From Candidatus Uhrbacteria bacterium CG10_big_fil_rev_8_21_14_0_10_48_11 (lineage in GTDB: Bacteria; Patescibacteriota; Patescibacteriia; GWA2-46-9), in the NCBI GenBank assembly GCA_002793855.1, contig PFET01000012.1, positions 6,222-70,221 on the forward strand: a stretch of DNA of 64,000 nucleotides, read 5' to 3'. Position numbers and translations under genes: made by a program. How positions within the stretch are numbered: position 1 is the stretch's first letter; each line of letters starts with the position of its first letter. This document shows, piece after piece, positions 392-42,761 of this stretch. Below the pieces are notes generated by a model. The model did not search any database. It was not told the DNA's origin and was given only the letters and a program-made list of their open reading frames with translations.

Positions 392-1561
392 TCATAGCTC
401 GTGACGATTGGCCAGTTCGAGCAGTCGATTGTACTTGGCAACATGTCCTCCACTTCCGAAACCACCTAGCTCTACATACTCTGCGCCGGTAGCAAAAGCA
501 AAATCAATGAGAAAATCATCGAGCGTTTCTTTTGCGGAGGTACGCAAAATGCGAGGCACGTTCATACCCCTTGCTTTCACTGCATAGGCAAGCGCATCGC
601 CAATCGTTCGAAAATGCCACAAGTCAATGGCAGCCGCGCCAACCGCATGATTGGTGACTGCTTCGGTAAGTGCTCCGGCGTCTCTGTTGGCAACGTCGTT
701 GCGAAGAAAAAGCACTTGGTCTCCATACGTACCCTGCGCGCGCACCAGCGTTTGCTCGTCACGAAACGAATTCTCTACCATACCAATCGGGTAGCGCCGA
801 ATTAGCATATGGCAAAGATGAAGCATTCCTGCTTCGTCGTCTGACGTATCGGCCTCTTGCTCTTGCTGCAATGTCCGACCAAAATCTATGCCGATACGCA
901 CATCGTTACGGCGCAAACCGGCAGCATGGGTACTCTGTAATAATTGTGTAAGGGTATTATTAAGACCATCAACCGTTATCACTTCGTCGCTATTTTGTAG
1001 CGGTGCATTTGCTGACGCGGTAAACGCAGCGAGTGTCTTTCTGGCAAGATTCAGCAACGTTCTTATAGAGCGACGAGGACCACGAGAGGCTCGGGGATTT
1101 ATCGCCATGCGAACAGACCGAAACGCTCCAGTGTCATCTGTATGCACCAAAATAATAGGCACCGGCATTGCCCACCCCGGTCCAGAAAAAGGAGCAAACT
1201 CTCGCAAGTGTTCATACAGCTCACGGCCTGAAGCGCTAGCACCAACGCGAGCTACTGCCATTGAAAGTGCCCGAGCAAAAGGCGCCCAAGAATCTTGGTC
1301 GTCAAATTGCTCACACAACAAATTGATTTTTCGATCCACATCTGCCTGCTCAACCGCATCAAGACCGCGCAATGCTTTGAGTGTTTTTTCGTTTGCAAAG
1401 GTCATCGCCTCGGCAAATTGCTTGTCATTCATCTCGGCACAAGAAGCAACTGCCTCAGCTCGCTGTCCGGCAATAGTACGCACCCACGCTGTGATCGCTC
1501 GTCCTCCGTGGGCATCAAATACCTCACGAAAAGTTACGCTGTGTATCGCCGTTACTCTCAT
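392..1561 (-). CDS. Enolase-like paralog with substituted catalytic residues
   Basis: Collinear with the true enolase at 41562..42761: REVFDAHGGRAITAWV vs RKIFDSRGEPTIEVVA, MPVPIILVHTDD vs MPVP..NGGEHA, LRTSAKETLDD vs SHRSGETDD, VAKYNRLLEL vs INKYNELIRL. The GGEH Glu, the IIKP Lys, the SHRS His and the VKIG Lys are all replaced. Confidence 0.6.
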   Translation of the reverse strand: MRVTAIHSVTFREVFDAHGGRAITAWVRTIAGQRAEAVASCAEMNDKQFAEAMTFANEKTLKALRGLDAVEQADVDRKINLLCEQFDDQDSWAPFARALSMAVARVGASASGRELYEHLREFAPFSGPGWAMPVPIILVHTDDTGAFRSVRMAINPRASRGPRRSIRTLLNLARKTLAAFTASANAPLQNSDEVITVDGLNNTLTQLLQSTHAAGLRRNDVRIGIDFGRTLQQEQEADTSDDEAGMLHLCHMLIRRYPIGMVENSFRDEQTLVRAQGTYGDQVLFLRNDVANRDAGALTEAVTNHAVGAAAIDLWHFRTIGDALAYAVKARGMNVPRILRTSAKETLDDFLIDFAFATGAEYVELGGFGSGGHVAKYNRLLELANRHEL

Positions 1562-3925: not shown

Positions 3926-4525
3926 TTACTGTCCTATTTCGTAGCGCGTGAAGCGCTTGATTTGTACATTCTCCCCCACTTTTGCCGTTATAGCAACCAG
4001 AAGGTCTTTTATTGTCTGCGATTCTTCTTTGATAGAGGACTGAGCAAGAAGCGCTTCTGCTTCTACAAACTTAGCAAAACTTCCCTCTAAAATCTTATCA
4101 ATAATTGTGGCATCTTTGCCGGCCAACTTACCCTCCTCCTCAAGACGCTCTTTTGCCAAACTAAGTTCTTTTGCTTTCACCTCTTCGGGAATGTCCTCGA
4201 CTGATAGGTAACGTGGATTTGTTGCGGCTACCTGCAAAGCAATGTCATGTACAAACGACTGAAAGTCTTCGTTGCGAGCGACAAAGTCGGTTTCGCAAGC
4301 AACTTCAATCAACACGCCAACACGTCCGTTCCCGTGAACGTAGGCGTGTACGATGCCCTCACTGGTCTCTCTGTCTTGCTTCTTCAATGCTTTGGCTTGT
4401 CCTCGTTTCTTCAAAAGCTCAAGCGCTTTTGCCTGGTCACCACCAGCTTCTTCGAGTGCTTTATGAATGTCGGAAATGCCCGCACCGGTTTCTCGGCGCA
4501 AGGCAACAATGGTTTCTTTTGTCAT
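3926..4525 (-). CDS. tsf: Elongation factor Ts (short form)
   Basis: N-terminal UBA-like LRxxTGAGxxDxKKAL motif, 199 aa, directly downstream of rpsB. Confidence 0.88.
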   Translation of the reverse strand: MTKETIVALRRETGAGISDIHKALEEAGGDQAKALELLKKRGQAKALKKQDRETSEGIVHAYVHGNGRVGVLIEVACETDFVARNEDFQSFVHDIALQVAATNPRYLSVEDIPEEVKAKELSLAKERLEEEGKLAGKDATIIDKILEGSFAKFVEAEALLAQSSIKEESQTIKDLLVAITAKVGENVQIKRFTRYEIGQ

Positions 4526-4576
4526 AGTACTAACGCTATTAAAATAAATCCCCCCTGACTTCGTGCCGCGCGGGCA

Positions 4577-5365
4577 CTAGACGCTTGCCTTAGTCGCCGC
4601 TGGTGGAACCGACGGACTACTAACGCGTCGGGCAGTGCCACGCTTTACGGCGGCGGCGGCTTCGTCAATCATAAGTTTTAGCGAACCAACGGCATCGTCG
4701 TTTCCCGCAATTGGATACTGAACCAGATCCGGATTGGTATTCGTGTCACAAACAGCAACAATCGGAACGCCAACTTTGTTTGCTTCACCAACGGCAGTGC
4801 GCTCTCGACGTACGTCGATAAGGAAAATTGCTTCCGGCATACGTTCTAGCTTTGCGATACCACCAATGACGCCTTCCAGTCTATTGTACTCTCGCTCCCG
4901 CTCTAGCCGCTCTTTCTTTGTCATATTTTCAAATGACTTCTGTTCAATCATCCGGCCAAGTTCTTTATGGCGTGCAATCATTTTACCGATAACCGCAAAG
5001 TTCGTAAGCATCCCACCAATCCACCGATCGTGTACGTAAGGCATAGCAACCGCCTCCGCGCTACTCTTCACGTAGTTCTGAATTTGTTTCTTGGTGCCTA
5101 CAAAAAGCACATTTCCACCCTTTACAACAATGTCCTCAATAAACTTCATTGCCTTATCCATCTGCTGCCGAGTCACTTCCAGATTGATGATGTGTATCCC
5201 TTGTCTTGCAGTAAAGATAAAAGGTCGCATTTTTGGATGCCACTTAGAAGTCAAATGTCCGAAATGAACACCCGCTTTTAGCATCTCTAAAATGCTCGGC
5301 GAGGAGTTCGCCTGCTTTTCTTTATCGGCAGTGGTGACGGGACTTGTTGCTGTAGGTTCAATCAT
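4577..5365 (-). CDS. rpsB: 30S ribosomal protein S2
   Basis: MPYVHDRWIGGMLTNF motif; rpsB-tsf synteny. Confidence 0.95.
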   Translation of the reverse strand: MIEPTATSPVTTADKEKQANSSPSILEMLKAGVHFGHLTSKWHPKMRPFIFTARQGIHIINLEVTRQQMDKAMKFIEDIVVKGGNVLFVGTKKQIQNYVKSSAEAVAMPYVHDRWIGGMLTNFAVIGKMIARHKELGRMIEQKSFENMTKKERLEREREYNRLEGVIGGIAKLERMPEAIFLIDVRRERTAVGEANKVGVPIVAVCDTNTNPDLVQYPIAGNDDAVGSLKLMIDEAAAAVKRGTARRVSSPSVPPAATKASV

Positions 5366-5463
5366 ACGTAAGATAATCCACGCTTAACGGCGTAGGGTAA
5401 GGAAAAATGCTCTAAAAATAGCAAACGCTCTCGCAATACATACGAGAGGAAAGAGCCTGAATG

Positions 5464-5492
5464 AGTATAACAGCTAGCAGAAATATTGGCAA
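5464..5492 (-). promoter_or_regulatory. Sigma70-like promoter for rpsB (TTGCCA-17-TATACT) followed by a roughly 100-nt structured leader
   Basis: Hexamers read on the minus strand. The leader contains a ctctcg..cgagag hairpin. Confidence 0.4.
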
Positions 5493-5526
5493 GCCATTCA
5501 AAAACTCTTACGCGGAACCCGTAGCC

Positions 5527-5555
5527 TTGCCAAACAGCAATGGCTTTGCTACTAT
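5527..5555 (+). promoter_or_regulatory. Promoter for rpmE (TTGCCA-17-TACTAT), giving a 5'UTR of about 9 nt
   Basis: Exact 17-nt spacer. The -10 ends 9 nt before the ATG at 5565. Confidence 0.45.
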
Positions 5556-5564
5556 CCTCACACT

Positions 5565-5891
5565 ATGAAAACAGCTATCCACCCAACCTATCACCCAAAG
5601 GCAACGGTTGTCTGCGCTTGCGGCAATACGTTTACTGTCGGTGCCACCGAACCTGAATTGCAGGTTGAACTTTGCAGTAATTGTCACCCCTTCTATACCG
5701 GCAAACAAAAACTTGTTGACACCGCACGAAGAGTTGATAAGTTTCAAAAACGTATTGAAGCACAAACAACCGCAGCAGAAGGTAAGCGCGGAAAAAAGGC
5801 AAAGCGAACGCTTCGCGCCTCTAAGCGTACACGAAAAGTTGACGAGTCGGCTAAAGTAACCGGCAAGAAACGTCCGCAAGCCGCAGCCTAG
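5565..5891 (+). CDS. rpmE: 50S ribosomal protein L31
   Basis: [10 protein letters not shown]...[13 protein letters not shown] zinc-ribbon L31 signature. Confidence 0.9.
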
Positions 5892-9046: not shown

Positions 9047-10618
9047 TCAGGGCACAGGATCGTTTGATCGTCGGTTCTTGGTCGTGACCAATCGCACAAG
9101 CTCAAGACGGTTTATGGCGTCAACGTAGGCCAACGCCGACGCCATTACCACATCGGTGTGATTACCCCTTCCGCGGACAGCAATCTCACCCGTCCGGATC
9201 AGTACACTGACCTCGCCAAGTGCATCGGTGCCGCCAGTCAATCCTTTCGCCTGATAGCCCTCCAGCACCGAATAAACATAAGTACTTTTTTTGATGGCCT
9301 CGTAGCAGGCGTCAATGAGGCCATCGCCCGTCGCTGTGGCAGACTGCGATTTACCATCAATACTAATGGTCACCGCTACCTCAGGGTCTCCGTGGAGGCT
9401 TGCGACAACCCGTACATCCTCCAGCACGAACCGCTGACTGGCATCGGACTCATCACCAATCGCCACCACAATCAGATCTTCCGAAAAGATCTGGCCCTTT
9501 TTGTCAGCCAGCAACTTAAAGCGAGTAAATGCATCGCTAAAGTTGATAACCCTGGGATCAAATCCCAACTCGCGCAATGCCTTACTAAAGGCATGTCGGC
9601 CGGAATGCTTACCAAGCACCAGCGTGTTGCTGATCCGACCGACATCTTCAGGCCGCATGATCTCGTAGGTCCTGACGTTCTTGAGCACGCCATCCTGATG
9701 AATGCCCGCCTCGTGCGCGAACGCATTCGCGCCAACGATTGGTTTCGTCGGTGCAATCGTCATCCCGATCATTTTCGAAAGTGTCTGACTCGCCAGATAG
9801 ATCTGCTTCGCATTGACACGGGTGTTAATGACAAAGTGATCGTATCGAGTATTGAGCGCCATCACCACCTCTTCCAGCGCGGTATTGCCGGCTCGCTCAC
9901 CGATCCCATTGATGGTGCACTCAACCTGCCGCGCTCCGCCCTCGACCGCGGCCAAGGAATTGGCAACCGCCAGCCCCAGGTCGTTGTGACAGTGCGTGCT
10001 CCAGATGACCTGATCCGCGCTCTCCGTGCGCGCACGCAGGGTCTCGAACATCTGCCGAATTTTATCAGGTACTCCGTAGCCCGTGGTGTCGGGAACGTTG
10101 CAGACGCGGGCGCCAGCACGAATTACCTCGCCAAAGACCTGGCACAGGTAGTCGGTGTCGCTGCGCGACGCGTCCTCTGCCGAGAACTCAATGTAATCGA
10201 CGTACCTGCTGGCACGCTCGACCGCCCAAGCCGCGGCGTCAATGACCTCCTGCCGGCTCATCCCCAGCTTGTACCGCAAATGGATGTCCGAGGTCGCGAT
10301 AAAGACATGGATCCCTGGGGACTTGGCGCCATCCACTGCTCTCAACGCCGTCTCGATATCGGCCTCGCGAGTGCGAGCCAAGCTCAAGACTACGGGCCCG
10401 TCGACGGCACGAGCTACCGCCTTCACAGACTCTAAATCCCCCGGAGACGCAGCCGCAAAGCCAGCTTCTATGACGTCGACTCCGAGCGCCTCAAGCTGCC
10501 GCGCAACGGCGAGCTTCTCATCAACGTTCATCGTGCAGCCCGGCGACTGCTCTCCGTCACGTAGGGTCGTATCGAAGATCCGAACCCAGTCATTACTTCC
10601 GTCCCTGTATTTTCCCAT
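9047..10618 (-). CDS. leuA: 2-isopropylmalate synthase (LeuA family, with C-terminal regulatory domain); GC about 58-60%
   Basis: [30 protein letters not shown], and a C-terminal GDGLIDA LeuA_dimer domain; 523 aa. GC and GC3 are clearly higher than in the flanking genes. Confidence 0.85.
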
Positions 10619-22995: not shown

Positions 22996-23592
22996 ATGGC
23001 ACATTTACAAAATAATACTGAAACGCTCAACCCCTATGGAGCCTGCTCGGCTTATATTATAGGGTTTGCTATTGCCTGTAAGCATCTCTCTCTAAATTCT
23101 GCGGCAAAAATCTTCTGGTTTCTCGCAGAACACAAGCAGGAGCTCGACGAGGCACTTCCTTCAACGATGGAGGCAATAGAGCTTGGACGTACGTGTGAGC
23201 AAATCAACGCGTTTTTGGAGATCCAAGAGAGCCTCGGCGGAATGGTTCGGCACTCTATCGCGATACAGACACCATGGTGCGACACTATCGAGGAACTATG
23301 TACAAGGCTCTGCGAAGTGAGTGCCCCCCTCGTCTTCTGGGACGAATATCGCGCGCAGGCAATAATCGACCTGCTCCAACTCATCGCAAACTTGCCTGAG
23401 GGTAAAGCCCTACAGGCAATCCTTCGTCTTTACGAAGACGGAAGTCCATCATATTCGGATATTATCCGATACGGCTGGCTTGGAATGGAATCTGAAGCTG
23501 CGAGATCTGCTCTTGATGGTGTACTTGCCAGCGAAAAGTCCTTTCATCGTAATTATCAGACAACGCTTGTCACCGAGGCCGGTCAAACATGA
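22996..23592 (+). CDS. Hypothetical all-alpha protein (198 aa), monocistronic unit
   Basis: Strong AAGGAGG Shine-Dalgarno sequence 8 nt upstream; no recognisable motif; terminators on both sides. Confidence 0.55.
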   Translation: MAHLQNNTETLNPYGACSAYIIGFAIACKHLSLNSAAKIFWFLAEHKQELDEALPSTMEAIELGRTCEQINAFLEIQESLGGMVRHSIAIQTPWCDTIEELCTRLCEVSAPLVFWDEYRAQAIIDLLQLIANLPEGKALQAILRLYEDGSPSYSDIIRYGWLGMESEAARSALDGVLASEKSFHRNYQTTLVTEAGQT

Positions 23593-23608: not shown

Positions 23609-24514
23609 CTAATTTGCAACCCATTTTTTTATGAAACGTTCGGCCTCATCTTTACCCTTAACCCAAATAATTTCTTTGTCTTTTTTCCACCACGTCATCT
23701 GTCGCTTGCTATACTGATACGTATGCGAAACAACTTTTTCTATACACTCTTGTTTTGTCAATGTACCCTTAAGGTATTCACTAACCTCCGGATACCCAAT
23801 ACCGCTCATTGAGGGTCGTGACGAAGGATACTTACTGAGTAGCTTTTTTGTTTCATCAACCAAACCGCTTTGAAACATTTTTTCAACTCGTTTTTTCATT
23901 CTTTCCCGTAGTATCTCTGTGTCTACAGTAATACCAATCTTTAAACTATCGTAATGCGTACGACCTTTTTTTCTTGCCTGCAGAAACCAGTTTCCAATTG
24001 CGCTTGCCACTTCAATAGCACGAATGACACGCCGAGCATTTTTTACATCGATACCTGCAACCGCCAGTGGGTCTAGTTTTTCTAACTGCTTAACCAAAAA
24101 CGGCAACCCCCGTTTTTGTAAATCTGCCGTAAGCTGTTTTCGCAATGTTTCATTTGGCGGCACTTCTGGTAATTTCCAATTTTGGACAACTGCATAAATA
24201 AAAAGAGCAGTTCCACCAACCAGTATAGGCAGCTTCCCTCGCGCATGAGCGCTCGTAATGGCTTCGCGAGCATCAAGCTTAAACTGCTGAACAGAATAAA
24301 GTTCATCCGGATTAACAACATCAACTAAATGCTGACGAATAGGTGCTGGCGGATAAAGTTTTGCGGTAGCGACGTCCATTCCGCGATAAACCTGACGAGA
24401 GTCTGCAGAAACAAGCTCTCCATCAAACATACGCGCAAGATGAACGGCAAGATCAGACTTTCCGGATGCTGTCGGGCCAACAATGGTCAACAGCAGTGGT
24501 AAACGTTTACTCAT
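23609..24514 (-). CDS. miaA: tRNA dimethylallyltransferase
   Basis: GPTASGKS P-loop and the DSRQVYRGMDVATAK motif. Confidence 0.92.
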   Translation of the reverse strand: MSKRLPLLLTIVGPTASGKSDLAVHLARMFDGELVSADSRQVYRGMDVATAKLYPPAPIRQHLVDVVNPDELYSVQQFKLDAREAITSAHARGKLPILVGGTALFIYAVVQNWKLPEVPPNETLRKQLTADLQKRGLPFLVKQLEKLDPLAVAGIDVKNARRVIRAIEVASAIGNWFLQARKKGRTHYDSLKIGITVDTEILRERMKKRVEKMFQSGLVDETKKLLSKYPSSRPSMSGIGYPEVSEYLKGTLTKQECIEKVVSHTYQYSKRQMTWWKKDKEIIWVKGKDEAERFIKKWVAN

Positions 24515-24540
24515 TCGGTCATTCTACCCTACTTCAAGAC

Positions 24541-24566
24541 AAACAAAAAAGGTGCCCTTGGGCACC
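24541..24566 (-). terminator. Intrinsic terminator (GGTGCCC-ttg-GGCACC plus T6 on the minus strand)
   Basis: Hairpin followed by TTTTTTGTTTG on the minus strand; it ends the small transcript at 24587..24742. Confidence 0.6.
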
Positions 24567-24586
24567 TAGAGGTTAACGGTAACGTA

Positions 24587-24742
24587 TTATATATTTGCCC
24601 AGAGAACCAATGATACAAATAACGTTGCGGCGCTCGCTAGAACCATCAAATGATCATCAATAAACTCTAGCCAGTTTTGTACGCCAGTTGTTTTTAAAAC
24701 AGGAACAAAAACGCCAAACGTGCTTGCAAGAAGCTCTCGCAT
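24587..24742 (-). CDS. Small hydrophobic protein, 51 aa (MRELLASTFGVFVPVLKTTGVQNWLEFIDDHLMVLASAATLFVSLVLWANI), absent from the ORF track
   Basis: Bracketed by its own promoter (24778..24806) and terminator (24541..24566); two hydrophobic segments. Confidence 0.4.
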   Translation of the reverse strand: MRELLASTFGVFVPVLKTTGVQNWLEFIDDHLMVLASAATLFVSLVLWANI

Positions 24743-24777
24743 ACTTTTATTTTTTTTTATTTTACAAACTTTACTGT

Positions 24778-24806
24778 AGTATAGCGTATTTCTATCAAAA
24801 AATCAA
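24778..24806 (-). promoter_or_regulatory. Promoter TTGATT-17-TATACT for the small ORF
   Basis: Exact 17-nt spacer on the minus strand. Confidence 0.45.
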
Positions 24807-24822
24807 GTTCGTAAATTGGAAC

Positions 24823-24853
24823 GGCGCGCGAGATCCTCCTTATCTCGCGCGCC
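24823..24853 (-). terminator. Perfect 12-bp inverted repeat (GGCGCGCGAGAT-cctcctt-ATCTCGCGCGCC) just 3' of the 24865 gene
   Basis: Located 10 nt downstream of the stop codon. Confidence 0.65.
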
Positions 24854-24864
24854 ACATACTAACC

Positions 24865-25422
24865 TCATTCAATCCGCTCCCCTGCAAGGTGCGCAAATTC
24901 GTAGGCATCTACCATGGCTAGCCAGCTTGCCTCAGTGACGCTTCTCGCTGTCGCCACGGTTCGGAAGTCCCAGCCATGGAACGTCCAGTCCACGACAACC
25001 TTGACCCGTGCCGCAGAGCCGCCACTACCAACCTTAAAAACGTGGTAATCACCGAGCTCCAAGCCCAAAGCTTTGACTTCAGCAACTTTGTTCATTGCGT
25101 TATCAAGCGCATTGATGGGCCCGTCTCCACGACCGGCCACATGGTCTTCTTGCCCTGTTTCCAGACGAAGCATGATTGTTGCTTCGGCAGGCTCTGCAGT
25201 TCCATCATCACCGCTTCGATGTAATTCACATACTCGGTACCACTCGACAAAAACAAAGGAGCAATTTGATCCATTCTCTCGAAACTGCGCCATTGCAATC
25301 GAAACAGCCTCCTCGCGTACGTATTCGCCATTCATTAAAAAAACCGCGATACGTACACCCCTTTCTCCGCTAAGATCCAAAAGACCCAACTCGCTGAGTT
25401 TCGCGAAATCAATTTTTTTCAT
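24865..25422 (-). CDS. Stand-alone LeuA regulatory (LeuA_dimer-like) domain protein, 185 aa
   Basis: GRGDGPINALDNAMNKV and VGSGGSAARVKVVVD...VTEASWLAMVDAYEF align with the C-terminal R-domain of the leuA product in this window ([15 protein letters not shown]...[11 protein letters not shown]...[13 protein letters not shown]). Strong GGGGAGGAAGGG Shine-Dalgarno sequence. Confidence 0.55.
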   Translation of the reverse strand: MKKIDFAKLSELGLLDLSGERGVRIAVFLMNGEYVREEAVSIAMAQFRENGSNCSFVFVEWYRVCELHRSGDDGTAEPAEATIMLRLETGQEDHVAGRGDGPINALDNAMNKVAEVKALGLELGDYHVFKVGSGGSAARVKVVVDWTFHGWDFRTVATARSVTEASWLAMVDAYEFAHLAGERIE

Positions 25423-25515
25423 TTCCCTTCCTCCCCACTCGTTGGTGGTGTGTCATGAAGTTGTCAAAGAGCGGGTTGCCCCCTTCTCGAGTCGATATCC
25501 GTTTCTCGACGGATA

Positions 25516-25546
25516 GAAAACGCCAGCCCCGATGAAGGGCTGGCGT
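25516..25546 (-). terminator. Hairpin ACGCCAGCCC-cgatgaa-GGGCTGGCGT followed by TTTCT
   Basis: 10-bp stem, 140 nt downstream of the disrupted gene's stop. Confidence 0.5.
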
Positions 25547-25681
25547 TGAAACTCAAGAGATACTTTAGCTACAACGTAAACCTTCCACCGCAAGTGGGCT
25601 GGCTAATAATGCTAATAATCTGAATTGCGCGAAGGTCCATATCGCTAAAATAGTAACAAGGCAGCTATTCCCGGTCAAGTC

Positions 25682-26910
25682 CTAGTGCGTCGGTCCAGCT
25701 GGTGTAAACAAATCCGTTTCGAAACGAGCTACTTCTGTACCCGTAGGATAATTATCAGCTGTAGGATCAACCTGTTTAACTAGGTAGTGGGTACTAAAAT
25801 TATTTTCCTTAAAACCTTCTTTGGTAAGTAATCGTTTTTCTCCATTCATAATAAGGTAACGTTCGTTCGATTTCTTGTACTGGATAATAGTACCGTCCGG
25901 ATGTACGTCGCTTGACGTAATAGGCGCCCCGACAGAAAAGGAAACAAAGTACCCATCTGGGATTGTTATTGCATTTTTTCCCAGTGCTTACCATAGAGTG
26001 CCTCACCAATTTCGTTCGTTGTAATTTCTCGAAGGTAACCATTGGGCGTTACTGCGTAAATTTTTGAATCGTTCTCAATTTTTACCAACGTTGTACCGGG
26101 ACGAATAAGCACATTGCCAGCAGTCGGCAATGAAGCAATAAAATCAAATGACACATCTACAACGTTCGACTGGTTTGGGTACCAGGTACGAAAAATATCT
26201 TTGTACAAAACGTCCTTACCTTTGGCGTCGTCATGCAGCGCAAAAAACGCATAGCGCTTGAGGTCGTTTCCAATATAGTAGTAAAGCTCATTACCTGAAT
26301 GGTCAGTATAACGAATAACCGAACCAGCCCCGATTACTGGACGCTGTTTGGTAACAGCGTGTCGTACGTTTACGGACTATTTAGCTCCGGCATTGGTAAC
26401 AGTAAGGTCAGTGAGGTGAGCCCGCAGTGTCGCTTTGATAGGCACAGTGTCCAAAATTGTTCCATAAACAGAAAGAGTTGTAGTGCTACCAGATGAAACC
26501 AAGAAAGGGCTCGGCATCGTAAAATCAACGATACGAACATTATTATTTTCTTTGACTACTGCTATGTCGCTTGCTGATGTCGTCGTACAGTTACTTTCAA
26601 TACACGTTCTGATTACAACATATACATTGTCACCGACAGCAGTGACACCATTATTTCGATCATCTATTTTTACTGTTCCCTTTATTGTTTCAATCTCCCC
26701 ATTTATTGGTGCGTGGACGTAAAAACTAGCAATTTCCAGATTGGCACCCGGCGCTAGCTCGTTGGGCTGAGGCGCCGCCTCTCCTAACCCTACGCCTACA
26801 ATTATCGTATTAGCCTTGCGCGCATAACTTACCGTAGGCAGCAACGTTAGTGCCAAAACAATTGAAAAAACGGTAATAATGGTTCGATTTCGCATAGAAA
26901 ATAACGGCAA
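25682..26910 (-). pseudogene. Disrupted secreted repeat protein (about 409 codons): signal peptide, in-frame TAG at 26377..26379, and a +1 shift needed in the A6 tract at 25974..25979
   Basis: A non-random protein frame continues straight through the TAG for 136 codons. Adding one A to GGGAAAAAATG restores the frame into IPDGYFVSF...PTH. The C-terminal repeats resemble those of the 974-aa protein. Confidence 0.55.
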
Positions 26911-26984
26911 TAATTAAGAGGCAAACCTTAACCCCTAAGGCCGTTTTTGTCAACCAAAACGCCTCCCTACCCTCTGTCACTACG

Positions 26985-28793
26985 TTAGTTCTGGCGAGTA
27001 GCAATTTGTGCTTGTACTCGAGAAATAAAATCAGCCAAGGTAATTTGCAATAACTCTTTTTCTCCGCGAACCCGCACAGAGAGTTGTGTACCGTCATCCC
27101 ATTTTCCCTCTTTAGGCGCCTCTTTGTCGCCAATCACCAATGCGTACGGCAGTTTCTCCGAAGCTGTTCGCCGTATCTTATTACCAACCGTGTCACCACT
27201 TTGATCAATGCTTACTCGTATACCTTCCGCTTCAAATTTTTCTGCAAGCATCAAGACGGCATCAAGATGCCCTTCGCCAACTGGCACCAAGCCAACCTGC
27301 ACCGGTGAAAGCCAAACCGGAAATGCTCCGGCAAAGTGCTCGATGATAATACCAATGAAGCGCTCCATTGAGCCGTAAATAACTCGATGGATGGCAACCG
27401 GCGTTTGTTTTTTTCCCTCTGCGTCAGTGTAATGCAAGTTAAAACGGCGCGGTTGCTGGAAGTCTAACTGAATGGTGCCCATCTGCCACTCCCTACCAAG
27501 GATGTCGCGCATAAGAATATCCACCTTCGGCCCATAGAAGGCACCATCACCATCAAGGACGGTAAATGCCTTACCACTCTTCAGTAGTATTTCTTTTAGT
27601 GTTCCCTCAGCACGATCCCACGTCTCACTATCTCCCATAAACTTTTCCGGCCGCGTTCCCATTCGGTACGAGTACTTGAGTCCAAAAATAGAGTAGAAGC
27701 GATCGACAATTTCAAAGACCCTAGCGTACTCATCACCGATCATATCCTCAGAAACAAAAATATGCGCATCGTCTTGGCGAAATTCACGAACCCTAAACAA
27801 CCCATTTAACGTACCCGAAAGTTCATTGCGATGAATCGGATCAGTGTCCGAAAAACGTAGTGGTAAATCACGATAGCTTCTTCCGCGCGAACCAAACACC
27901 ACCATGGCGTTTGGACAGTTCATGGCTTTAACCCCATACTCTTCCTCTTCGTCGGTTTTTGCCACAAACATATCCCCCCAATAATGTTCGCAATGACCAG
28001 AAGTGATGTAGAGTTCACGCTTATTAAGAAGCGGAGAAACAATTTCTTGGTAGCCGCGACGTCGATGCTCATCTCGCCAAAACTGGATAAGTTCGTTGTA
28101 GAGAACAACTCCCTTCGGTAGCCAGTACGGCATCCCAGGGGCGGTTTCGTGAAACATAAATAAATCAAGCTCTTGACCAAGTTTCCGGTGGTCACGCTTC
28201 TTTGCCTCTTCTATCATTGCAAGATGTTGAGAAAGGTCGCGTTCGGTTTCAAAAGCTACCCCATAGACACGTTGCAGCATTTTGTTCTTTTCGCTTCCTC
28301 TCCAGTACGCACCGGCAAGCTTAGTCAACTTGAACGCGCCTATTGCTTCGGTGCTTTTTACATGAGGTCCTCGACACAAATCGACAAAAGCCCCCGTTTC
28401 GTAAACTGAGGTAATCTCCTTTGCAGCCGGATCGATATCAAAAGACTCATCGGCCTCTACTTTTGTTGTCCCTTTATCGCGCAGCGCCTCTAATAGCTCA
28501 ACCTTATAGGGCTGCTTTTTCTCCTTAAAAAAGGCAATTGCTTCTCCAATTGGCATTTCTCTACGAACAAACGCTTCGTTTCGTTTTTTAATCTCCTCCA
28601 TTTTTTCTTCAATAGTCGACAGATTGTCGACCGAAAGCGACACGGGAAGATCAACGTCGTAGTAAAAACCATTTTCTACAACGGGACCGACACCAAATTG
28701 CGCGGTCGGGTAAAGCTCTTGCAATGCGGCGGCAAGTAGGTGCGCTGCTGAGTGGCGCATTGTTTCGACGGCTGAAAGTTTTGGTTCATTCAT
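26985..28793 (-). CDS. thrS: Threonyl-tRNA synthetase
   Basis: Class II motifs and anticodon-binding domain; 602 aa. Confidence 0.95.
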   Translation of the reverse strand: MNEPKLSAVETMRHSAAHLLAAALQELYPTAQFGVGPVVENGFYYDVDLPVSLSVDNLSTIEEKMEEIKKRNEAFVRREMPIGEAIAFFKEKKQPYKVELLEALRDKGTTKVEADESFDIDPAAKEITSVYETGAFVDLCRGPHVKSTEAIGAFKLTKLAGAYWRGSEKNKMLQRVYGVAFETERDLSQHLAMIEEAKKRDHRKLGQELDLFMFHETAPGMPYWLPKGVVLYNELIQFWRDEHRRRGYQEIVSPLLNKRELYITSGHCEHYWGDMFVAKTDEEEEYGVKAMNCPNAMVVFGSRGRSYRDLPLRFSDTDPIHRNELSGTLNGLFRVREFRQDDAHIFVSEDMIGDEYARVFEIVDRFYSIFGLKYSYRMGTRPEKFMGDSETWDRAEGTLKEILLKSGKAFTVLDGDGAFYGPKVDILMRDILGREWQMGTIQLDFQQPRRFNLHYTDAEGKKQTPVAIHRVIYGSMERFIGIIIEHFAGAFPVWLSPVQVGLVPVGEGHLDAVLMLAEKFEAEGIRVSIDQSGDTVGNKIRRTASEKLPYALVIGDKEAPKEGKWDDGTQLSVRVRGEKELLQITLADFISRVQAQIATRQN

Positions 28794-41561: not shown

Positions 41562-42761
41562 CTATTCGTCGTAGAGACGAATGAGCTCGTTGTACTTGTT
41601 GATTCTCTCGTTTCTCGGAGCCCCAATTTTAACCGCATCCGCGCTGCCGGCCTTTGCTAGCTCGATAATAAAGGGATCATCCGTCTCTCCTGAACGATGA
41701 GAGACAATAGTGGTGAGTTTATGCTGGCGAGCGATTTCTAGCGCCCTACACGACTCACTTACCGTTCCTACCTGATTCGGCTTAATGATAACCCCGCTAA
41801 TGCAAGCACGCTCGGCAAACCCCTCAATACGCTTTGGGTTTGTTACCGTAAGATCGTCACCAACAACCGAAAGATTAGGCAATGCCTCCAAAAGAGCGGC
41901 AAACCCCTCAGCGTCATCTTCAGCAAAAGGATCCTCGATACTAATAAGCCTAGGGATTTCGGTAGTAAATTTCTTGTACACTTCAACCATTTCCCCCGCA
42001 TTTATTGTTTTGCCACCAAATCGGTAACTCCCGTCATGATAAAAACTAGAAGCTGCGGCATCAAGCGCCAAGGATAAGCGATCCGAAAGCGACGACTCTT
42101 CTATGAGCGAGCTAAGTATTTTTAATGGTTCTTCATTGTTTTTAAAATCTACACAGTAGCCAGCTTCGTCACCAACCGGCAGTGCTTCCAGCTTACGGGA
42201 AGTGCGGAGCTGTTCCCCCAAAGTTCGGTAGAGAGCCACCAGTTCTTGTGTTAGTTCGGCGTAGGATATTTTTGGAGCAGCCACGAGCATATACTCTTGA
42301 ATAGCAAGATTGTTAGCAGCATGCTCGCCACCATTAATGACATTACTGTAAATGCGCGGACGAACGGCACCACTAACGTGGGCAAAAAACTCTTCGTGCA
42401 GTACCTCTGAAAGTTGCCTTGACTGTTCGGCGGCTAACGCGCGAGAGAGGGCAACAGAAATCGCAAGCGTAATGTTGCCGCCAAGTATAGCCTTGGTATC
42501 TGTTGTATCAATCCCTAGCAGTAGCTCGTCAACTTCATGAACGGAGCCGTACTCTCTGCCGAGCATTGCCTTTCGAAGCGCCTCAATTGACTGTTCGGCT
42601 TCATGGTACGAAAACACTTTTGCCTCTGCACTACCACGACTTTTACCTGAGGGCACCGCAGCACGATGAGAAACACGAGCGCCGTCGAGTGCTACAACTT
42701 CGATGGTCGGCTCACCACGAGAGTCAAAAATTTTTCTGACGCGTAGATCGTCTAACTTCAT
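41562..42761 (-). CDS. eno: Enolase
   Basis: SHRSGETDD, IIKPNQVGT and NGGEHA motifs; 399 aa. Confidence 0.95.
   Translation of the reverse strand: MKLDDLRVRKIFDSRGEPTIEVVALDGARVSHRAAVPSGKSRGSAEAKVFSYHEAEQSIEALRKAMLGREYGSVHEVDELLLGIDTTDTKAILGGNITLAISVALSRALAAEQSRQLSEVLHEEFFAHVSGAVRPRIYSNVINGGEHAANNLAIQEYMLVAAPKISYAELTQELVALYRTLGEQLRTSRKLEALPVGDEAGYCVDFKNNEEPLKILSSLIEESSLSDRLSLALDAAASSFYHDGSYRFGGKTINAGEMVEVYKKFTTEIPRLISIEDPFAEDDAEGFAALLEALPNLSVVGDDLTVTNPKRIEGFAERACISGVIIKPNQVGTVSESCRALEIARQHKLTTIVSHRSGETDDPFIIELAKAGSADAVKIGAPRNERINKYNELIRLYDE

Follow-up and report, generated by a model that had tools for sequence, protein, structure and literature searches.

A stand-alone LeuA_dimer protein, likely the tail of a truncated citramalate synthase, behind a candidate isoleucine attenuator in Patescibacteria

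The window analyzed here is a 64,000-nucleotide (nt) stretch of contig PFET01000012.1 (positions 6,222 to 70,221, forward strand; assembly GCA_002793855.1) from Candidatus Uhrbacteria bacterium CG10_big_fil_rev_8_21_14_0_10_48_11, and all coordinates below count from its first letter. We focused our attention on a gene of 185 amino acids (aa) at 24865..25422 on the minus strand, hypothetical in the window's record, which an earlier model-made note (the original prediction) had described as a free-standing allosteric domain of 2-isopropylmalate synthase (LeuA) that might sense leucine. We propose instead that it is likely the tail of a citramalate synthase (CimA), the enzyme that opens the pyruvate-based pathway to isoleucine. 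The catalytic half would have been deleted, and the tail would have been kept by selection together with the isoleucine-codon switch in front of it; the tail probably retains some independent role. This truncation origin and the candidate attenuator upstream, both absent from the original prediction, are the most informative features of the locus.

Starting from an ATG, the gene encodes a remnant of accessory subdomain II (residues 1 to ~50) followed by a complete LeuA_dimer regulatory domain of the citramalate synthase type. The Pfam hidden Markov model (HMM) for LeuA_dimer, PF08502, matched residues 74-175 (profile positions 32-128 of 131) with an E value of 1.3e-17, scoring 64.4 bits where the gathering threshold is 24.9, and the Pfam scan detected no HMGL-like barrel (PF00682) in the protein. 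A protein of this content, with neither a catalytic barrel nor subdomain I, cannot act as an enzyme. An AlphaFold2 model built on a 45-sequence alignment (predicted local distance difference test, pLDDT, 81; predicted template-modelling score, pTM, 0.75) has three N-terminal helices and then two beta-beta-beta-alpha units; we used this model in place of one made from the single sequence, which was poor (pLDDT 52). When the model was compared with the PDB by Foldseek, it matched the regulatory domain of M. tuberculosis LeuA (3hps, 3fig, and 1sr9; E 5e-9) and the isolated, isoleucine-bound regulatory domain of Leptospira citramalate synthase (LiCMS; 3f6h and 3f6g; E 5e-7), with a target-normalized TM score of 0.73 to 3f6h for what is a predicted model and not a solved structure. 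Among PDB sequences, phmmer found nothing for the protein and a three-sequence profile gave weak matches only (E 0.04-0.12); a word-index homology search returned the protein itself alone. The Shine-Dalgarno sequence GGGGAGGAAGGGAA lies at 25436..25423 (minus strand), immediately 5' of the ATG. The original prediction was thus right about a free-standing LeuA_dimer protein, about the missing TIM barrel, and about a very strong Shine-Dalgarno sequence, and the likeness to LeuA regulatory domains on which it drew is borne out by the modelled fold. The motifs that it aligned to the LeuA of the window were correctly picked, but the pairwise similarity is weak (BLASTP, 27% identity, E 0.04).

The parent enzyme is another matter. 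Of the NCBIfam models, citramalate synthase TIGR00977 scored best on the 185-aa protein (44.7 bits, residues 51-177 on profile positions 388-516 of 526, with the cut-off of 450 bits not reached), ahead of LeuA models at 32.5 bits or less (cut-off 598.7 for the best of these). By these scores the protein is closer to CimA than to the LeuA of the window, as it is by identity to the C-terminus of the CimA of a relative described below (36%, against 27% for the window LeuA). The domain is therefore better called CimA-like than LeuA-like. Leucine sensing, the function that had been put forward, finds no pointer in the locus; the upstream leader carries isoleucine codons and is common to the cimA gene of that same relative.

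We then mapped the ligand site. The effector-loop motif G99-D-G-P-I-N-A105 is present in the protein and invariant among the three orthologues and in the family. In a profile alignment to PDB sequences, G99-D-G-P-I103-N-A corresponds to G426-D-G-G-Y430-D-A of LiCMS and to G531-N-G-P-L535-A-A of M. tuberculosis LeuA, and L123, Y126, and V140 align with L451, Y454, and V468 of LiCMS. Y430, L451, Y454, I458, and V468 of LiCMS reportedly make up the isoleucine side-chain pocket (Zhang et al. 2009, Biochem J 421:133). Three of these five residues are identical in the 185-aa protein, the fifth is uncertain, and Y430 is replaced by Ile or Val, which is also what most TIGR00977-type enzymes have in the family consensus. 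On its own, the CimA regulatory domain is reported to fold and to assemble into dimers and tetramers, with binding seen for isoleucine and not for leucine or valine (PMC13381585). Because of this precedent and of the pocket alignment, isoleucine binding by the 185-aa protein is plausible, and we infer that the protein could dimerize and bind isoleucine.

Proteins of this kind are rare. An HMMER search of 1.84 billion representative proteins gave 382 matches, among which the only full-length relatives were P0002, with 185 aa and 48% identity, and P0004, called at 213 aa but 188 aa long when counted from the ATG that a Shine-Dalgarno sequence precedes; a profile search of a 5.8-billion-cluster set recovered the same three proteins. 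All three are from Patescibacteria, and their genes share a gene order: thrS, a variable insert, the gene, a 51-aa open reading frame (ORF), miaA, and a hypothetical gene, and then gatB, tmk, thyX, dcd, and so on to L1, L11, nusG, and secE. Two further candidates for free-standing LeuA_dimer proteins, P0158 and P0153, proved to be artefacts: the first lies at a contig start, and the second has been separated from its barrel by a frameshift in an error-rich assembly. An unrelated metagenome contig illustrates the route by which spurious free-standing LeuA_dimer proteins reach the databases: in L007 (ERZ25039512 contig_74368, 4088..5651), a LeuA/CimA-type gene is apparently split into an HMGL-like ORF and an HCS_D2/LeuA_dimer ORF, and its neighbors (pantoate transferase and dehydroquinate synthase) are also fragmented, so the split is most likely a sequencing error. 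We found no prior description of stand-alone LeuA_dimer proteins in the literature searched.

To place the gene in its evolutionary context, we recovered the syntenic regions of relatives by a metagenome scan with the dcd gene of the window, taking 10-kb flanks, and probed them by tblastn with the window proteins. One of these regions, L013 (Ga0172368_10000161), holds a 536-aa gene in the same slot between thrS and the 51-aa ORF/miaA, and its product scores as a genuine citramalate synthase (689.6 bits on TIGR00977, cut-off 450). This cimA has the same promoter, leader, and terminator and a spacer of similar length on its 5' side, and a hairpin and the promoter of the 51-aa ORF on its 3' side. 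The C-terminus of the L013 enzyme is 36% identical to the window protein (E 8e-15), the N-terminal residues of which align at about residue 340 of the enzyme, and a look at all frames around the gene turned up no barrel remnant in the window, L001, or L004. Since slot, leader, terminator, and C-terminus are common to both genes and no barrel remnant is left, the 185-aa gene reads as cimA minus ~340 N-terminal codons with its 5' control region kept. Judging from the preserved spacer length, the deletion probably spared the original Shine-Dalgarno sequence and start codon and joined them in frame to the rest. The three truncated forms have a common junction and a common deletion of nine residues, the CimA motif GWQFEGAEG of subdomain II, and for this reason we favor a single truncation event. 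In the history that we propose, one internal deletion in an ancestor of three Uhrbacteria-like lineages would have removed ~340 codons, and with them the TIM barrel of the catalytic half and the bulk of the accessory domain. It would have left behind the native promoter, the isoleucine leader, the terminator/antiterminator, the 5' untranslated region (UTR) with its Shine-Dalgarno sequence, and the C-terminal part, the product of which would have been kept since as a separate 185-aa protein.

In a comparison of intergenic DNA, the ~110 nt upstream of the gene were far better conserved than the proteins. A promoter scan placed a sigma-70-like promoter at 25650..25678 (minus strand), with TTGACC and TACTAT separated by a 17-nt spacer that carries an extended -10 TG; the TTGAC, TG, and TAnnnT positions are invariant in an alignment of four loci (A5). 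A leader ATG follows the -10 box by 10-13 nt across the loci (10 nt in the window) and opens an ORF of 23 codons, five of them for isoleucine, at 25569..25640 (minus strand; MDLRAIQIISIISQPTCGGRFTL, then the stop). Homologous in-frame ORFs, each closed by a stop codon, are present in L001 (MQYQSSSYIISIIISQPEEGGRFAL), L004 (MKRVIFAQIISIIISQPLWGGRFTL), and L013, where the leader (MILRISAQIISIIISQPLSGRFTL) lies upstream of the full-length cimA. All four have 23-25 codons with five or six for isoleucine and follow the pattern IISII(I)SQP..GRFxL before the stop. Isoleucine makes up 5.7% of residues in the long genes of the window, and the leader is the only one of its 427 small ATG ORFs to have at least five isoleucines within seven residues.

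The RNA that follows the isoleucine codons can be drawn in two mutually exclusive ways. Region 1 (GCCAGCCC, 25596..25603, minus strand) lies directly 3' of the isoleucine codons, is identical to part of the 5' arm of the terminator, and has two possible pairing partners, the terminator 3' arm GGGCUGGC and GGUGG in region 2. Region 2 (GGUGGAAGGUU...CGUUG), which holds the leader stop (UAG in the window), is predicted to pair with region 3 (the terminator 5' arm and loop) in an antiterminator hairpin at 25531..25589 (minus strand; GGUGGAAGGUUUACGUUGUAGCU...UUCAACGCCAGCCCUUCAUC), so that the stop codon lies within the 5' strand of the antiterminator. This 2:3 hairpin folds at -19.7 kcal/mol in the window and at -19.7 to -22.7 kcal/mol across the loci, with the same architecture in all of them. 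The alternative is an intrinsic terminator at 25513..25547 (minus strand), formed by AACGCCAGCCC, the loop UUCAUCG, GGGCUGGCGUU, and UUCU, with a stem of -22.4 kcal/mol. It is nearly invariant in the four loci (stems of 11-12 bp, -20.5 to -22.4 kcal/mol, with UUUUCU or UUUUGU after them). The terminator is separated from the gene by a 5'-UTR spacer (25423..25512, minus strand) with a small conserved hairpin, CCGUCGAGAAACGG, and the Shine-Dalgarno sequence; this spacer measures 84-100 nt in truncated and full-length loci alike, and the promoter scan showed no promoter-like site in it.

Conservation of the element extends to the nucleotide level. From the isoleucine run to the U-tract, the DNA is 83% identical across truncated and full-length loci, compared with ~40% in the flanks. 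RNAalifold, run on three and then on four loci, paired alignment positions 12-19 with 88-95, i.e., region 1 with the terminator 3' arm, and two pairs showed compensatory changes; a change of UAG to UAA in L013 preserves the base pair of that stop codon. A search of Rfam at E values up to 1 gave no family in 24300..27100, and the window has no tRNA or tmRNA genes. A scan of genome contigs with GGTGGAAGGTTTNCGNTGTAG yielded one real locus, in the metagenome-assembled genome (MAG) of P0004, and three chance matches, from which we conclude that among species representatives the leader is confined to this clade. Our literature search found no report of cimA leader peptides or of attenuators in Patescibacteria.

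The element looks like a classic isoleucine transcription attenuator, and such a switch would be expected to work as follows. Transcription would begin at the conserved promoter, and the leader ORF would be translated. With Ile-tRNA plentiful, the ribosome would run to the stop codon in region 2, the 3:4 terminator would form, and transcription would end before the gene. When Ile-tRNA is scarce, a ribosome stalled on the IISII codons would hide region 1 and leave region 2 to pair with region 3, which would block the terminator and let the gene be transcribed. The protein made under isoleucine shortage would then fold as a LeuA/CimA-type regulatory domain, dimerize, and take up a branched-chain amino acid, isoleucine or a different one, where the two chains meet. 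Attenuation, with induction on isoleucine shortage, is what we infer from the arrangement of codons, stop, and alternative helices.

Selection appears to have acted on the remnant as well as on its switch. Synonymous sites are saturated for every gene pair, and the housekeeping proteins of the three lineages with the truncated gene share 68-77% identity, yet in each lineage the ORF has stayed open over 185-188 codons from an unchanged start preceded by a Shine-Dalgarno sequence. Where it could be computed, the ratio of non-synonymous to synonymous divergence (omega) of the truncated gene was ~0.28-0.36; synonymous divergence by NG86 was often undefined from saturation, and these values are rough upper-bound ratios. 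Such comparisons show purifying but relaxed selection. We suggest that the product still matters, because its switch has been kept at 83% DNA identity.

Several observations weigh against this interpretation. The truncated gene changes fast: its non-synonymous divergence (dN) is 0.50-0.74, compared with 0.14-0.29 for thrS, gatB, and tmk and 0.33-0.51 for miaA, which puts the truncated protein at two to five times its housekeeping neighbors. The truncated proteins are 34-36% identical to 172 regulatory domains of the family, against 47% for the C-terminus of L013 CimA; several near-invariant family residues are replaced in the 185-aa protein, and the GWQFEGAEG motif is missing from all three truncated forms. 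Fast change, replaced residues, and motif loss fit relaxed constraint as well as they fit a new role. As for the origin, a concatenated quartet of 2,990 columns joined the window with L004, apart from L013 and L001 (500 of 500 bootstraps), with a very short inner branch, and a single truncation requires the root of this unrooted tree, which has no outgroup, to lie on the L013 branch. The attenuator has its own difficulties. Covariation is thin (2 of 30 pairs), with only four independent and very similar leaders to draw on, and the simple terminator scan did not list the leader terminator at 25513..25547, probably because the maximal stem absorbs two U residues. No Shine-Dalgarno sequence precedes the leader ORF in the four-locus alignment; with the ATG only 10-13 nt past the -10 box, translation of the leader would be leaderless or nearly so. 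Lastly, with region 1 masked, the terminator is still the minimum-energy fold in the window (-27.3 vs -21.4 kcal/mol). Antitermination would have to be kinetic, because the equilibrium folds favor the terminator.

A possible partner is encoded nearby. A full-length 2-isopropylmalate synthase gene, leuA, lies 14 kb from the 185-aa gene (9047..10618, minus strand; HMGL-like, HCS_D2, and LeuA_dimer domains by Pfam). Its product is a genuine isopropylmalate synthase by its NF002086 score (689 bits, cut-off 532). The window encodes no member of this enzyme family besides this one and the 185-aa protein, and no other genes of branched-chain amino acid biosynthesis (leuBCD or ilv) were found in the 64 kb. 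In the window, L013/L014, and L015, leuA stands between the L25 gene and ftsW, and synteny is broken there in L004. The co-occurrence with leuA that the original prediction had raised is therefore seen wherever the syntenic site could be read, and L004 is left out of this count. The idea that leuA is a horizontally acquired singleton absent from relatives was overturned by its presence at the syntenic site in L013/L014 and L015. Apart from this, the nearest relatives of the window leuA are at 72-73% identity in MAGs of Binatia, Limnocylindrales, and Deltaproteobacteria, and the copies in related Patescibacteria are at 68% (L014) and 49% (L015), which suggests exchange or replacement by horizontal transfer within the clade.

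How, then, might the tail act, and does it act at all? The original prediction had it as a leucine or branched-chain amino acid sensor working in trans on LeuA, a dominant regulator that forms mixed regulatory-domain dimers or docks on the barrel. In LeuA/CimA-type enzymes, each chain packs against the barrel of its partner through its regulatory and accessory domains, and it is the regulatory domain that holds the effector site (PMC9860122). Such cross-chain packing speaks for a role of this kind, as do the full-length isopropylmalate synthase gene 14 kb away, the leuA genes at the same site in L013/L014 and L015, and the part of subdomain II that the 185-aa protein has kept. Yet the descent is apparently from CimA and not from LeuA, with 27% identity to the regulatory domain of the window LeuA, and the control element has codons for isoleucine, not leucine; moreover, LeuA already carries a regulatory domain of its own, GWQFEGAEG is deleted from the retained part of subdomain II in all three truncated forms, and the presence of leuA in the genome of L004 could not be read. 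We consider a leucine-sensing regulator of LeuA unlikely. An isoleucine version of the idea, in which a separate isoleucine-responsive subunit is induced by shortage of Ile-tRNA and alters the activity, feedback, or substrate choice of LeuA or of another partner (for example, by making LeuA supply citramalate for isoleucine), strikes us as a long shot. The most concrete output of a retained CimA tail could nonetheless be to influence the isopropylmalate synthase of the same genome, whether regulatory domain touches regulatory domain or the tail docks on the barrel.

Opposed to any function is the reading of the gene as a decaying cimA fragment that is still transcribed from its old promoter. 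The lost catalytic half, the accelerated amino acid change (dN well above that of the housekeeping genes), and the drift from the family consensus would all fit, and so would the low identity between window and L004, at 37-40% here though their housekeeping proteins are 77% identical, and the restriction of the gene to three metagenome-assembled lineages. But a run of 185 random codons would stay open with a chance of ~1e-4 per lineage, and the frame, start, and Shine-Dalgarno sequence have outlasted the saturation of synonymous sites; omega is ~0.3, the invariant motif of the family and the aligned pocket positions are retained, and a leader/attenuator held at 83% DNA identity in the truncated loci would be odd for a useless product. 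A mere leftover is thus very unlikely in our judgment. We give just as little credence to the proposal that the upstream ORF is an independent hydrophobic micro-protein, or a small RNA, with a terminator of its own, and that the gene is expressed from a separate promoter with no attenuation. It could appeal to the C-terminal part of the peptide (SQP..G(G)RFxL), which is as conserved as the isoleucine run, to the lack of a Shine-Dalgarno sequence before the leader, to the terminator being the equilibrium fold in most masked states, and to how poorly promoters of Candidate Phyla Radiation (CPR) bacteria are known. It is countered by conservation that is at the nucleotide level and runs beyond the stop codon through the terminator, by conserved C-terminal codons that are exactly the strands of the alternative helices, by the UAG-to-UAA change in L013 that preserves a base pair, and by a 96-nt spacer that is poorly conserved and has no promoter-like site; in addition, the element is always directly 5' of cimA or its remnant, whatever lies farther upstream. 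An assembly or gene-calling artefact, in which a contig end, a frameshift, or a chimera had disrupted cimA, is what most other short LeuA_dimer proteins in the databases turn out to be. Here it has next to no likelihood, given that the gene is interior to a 105-kb contig, that no barrel-coding remnant lies nearby in any frame, and that the same architecture recurs in independent assemblies from different samples (Joint Genome Institute, JGI, 3300014205, 3300037067, and 3300037810, and Logan runs SRR6484325 and SRR18595301). A retained CimA tail under its old isoleucine switch is, on balance, the reading that we favor.

On the other side of the gene, 12 nt past the stop codon, a 12-bp hairpin with the loop AAGGAGG occupies 24823..24853 (minus strand; -27.2 kcal/mol, z -4.2). 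The original prediction had called it a terminator. The inverted repeat is real, but no U-run follows directly and it is not in the terminator scan. L001, L004, and L013 each have a hairpin in the corresponding position, the stem differing in sequence from genome to genome; only the L013 hairpin runs straight into a U-run, and the window hairpin is probably a terminator or a transcript-stabilizing hairpin inherited from cimA. The loops of these hairpins carry Shine-Dalgarno-like purine runs on the mRNA strand: AAGGAGG at 24835..24841 in the window, and AAAGGGGA, AUCAAGGAGGA, and CACGAGGAC in the others (L001 ~10585, L004 ~10675, and L013 ~15775).

The surroundings of the locus offered some further observations. 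The 51-aa ORF (24587..24742, minus strand; MRELLASTFGVFVPVLKTTGVQNWLEFIDDHLMVLASAATLFVSLVLWANI) has a hydrophobic C-terminus, is exactly 51 codons long in all four loci at 55-76% identity, has no NCBIfam match, and always lies between cimA (or its remnant) and miaA; its promoter, TTGATT-N17-TATACT at 24806..24778 (minus strand), is strongly conserved and is followed by an A-rich leader that lacks a Shine-Dalgarno sequence. The slot that separates thrS from the isoleucine leader, at 25682..26910 (minus strand), contains short ORFs of 177, 80, 77, and 55 aa in different frames with no Pfam match, which resemble one surface-protein-like gene broken by frameshifts (e.g., at an A-run near 25975). 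This slot is variable, being filled by a 1,427-aa S8 peptidase with FG-GAP repeats in L004 and by nothing in L001. The hypothetical 198-aa gene between gatB and miaA (22996..23592, plus strand) is 20-22% identical to its counterparts in L001 and L004, which are 44% identical to each other, so the window copy is either very fast-evolving or replaced. Farther away, the window has two enolase-like genes, at 392..1561 and 41562..42761 (both minus strand), one of which is typical (Enolase_C, E 1e-63) and the other, next to pgk and gap, very divergent (Enolase_N, E 3e-8; Enolase_C, E 4e-7).

What would a retained tail mean? Allosteric domains are usually seen as accessories of enzymes, and here an accessory and its switch appear to have long outlived the enzyme that was deleted, in a reduced-genome CPR group about whose amino acid metabolism and gene regulation little is understood. 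Provided that isoleucine binding has persisted, the protein would be a natural minimal isoleucine sensor and a test case for how regulatory domains gain roles in trans. Were it a subunit acting in trans, it would be the first allosteric domain of the LeuA/CimA type shown to do so, comparable to IlvH, and a documented instance of an allosteric domain outliving its enzyme. The leader and terminator appear to be the first candidate amino acid attenuator described in Patescibacteria. For annotation, the gain is that the 185-aa protein can be described as probably CimA-derived and isoleucine-linked, not leucine-linked.

We compared the locus with the known systems that it most resembles. Its closest counterpart is CimA/LiCMS (TIGR00977; 3F6G and 3F6H), with a homologous C-terminal domain of two beta-beta-beta-alpha units and a G-D/N-G-P effector loop; the 185-aa gene is positionally orthologous to the L013 cimA and has the same 5' control region, but the protein is without the HMGL-like barrel, subdomain I, and the nine-residue motif of subdomain II, and it has drifted faster. 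The LeuA regulatory domain (M. tuberculosis; 1SR9 and 3FIG) shares the Pfam domain and fold and gave the best Foldseek E values, yet the 185-aa protein is a paralogue of it and not a copy, at 27% identity to the window LeuA, and LeuA responds to leucine whereas the control element of the 185-aa gene carries isoleucine codons. Leader-peptide attenuators are known from ilvGMEDA, ilvBN, thr, leu, and trp of E. coli. Like these, the window element has a short ORF with a run of cognate codons, a stop in region 2, predicted 2:3 and 3:4 hairpins that would exclude each other, and, just 5' of a gene of the pathway of that amino acid, a G+C-rich terminator ending in a U-tract. Unlike them, it is found in CPR/Patescibacteria, its leader is near-leaderless, its region 1 duplicates the 5' arm of the terminator so that a long 1:4 plus 2:3 helix is possible, and it would control only a regulatory domain, not an enzyme. 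Plant methylthioalkylmalate synthases and the LeuA2-type isopropylmalate synthases of Leptospira have lost the regulatory domain. Such enzymes (see also NF042434) show the same domain boundary and that the catalytic and regulatory halves are separable, but the event here would be the reciprocal one, with loss of the catalytic half and survival of the regulatory one. With IlvH/IlvN of acetohydroxyacid synthase the analogy is functional only: these are small effector-binding proteins separate from the catalytic subunit, IlvH being in use as a separately encoded effector-binding subunit (PMC13381585), but they have the unrelated ACT fold instead of LeuA_dimer, and IlvH has a known catalytic partner. 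The attenuation principle is a known one, unreported for this phylum in the literature searched, and what is new is a known domain in a stand-alone, evolutionarily documented state.

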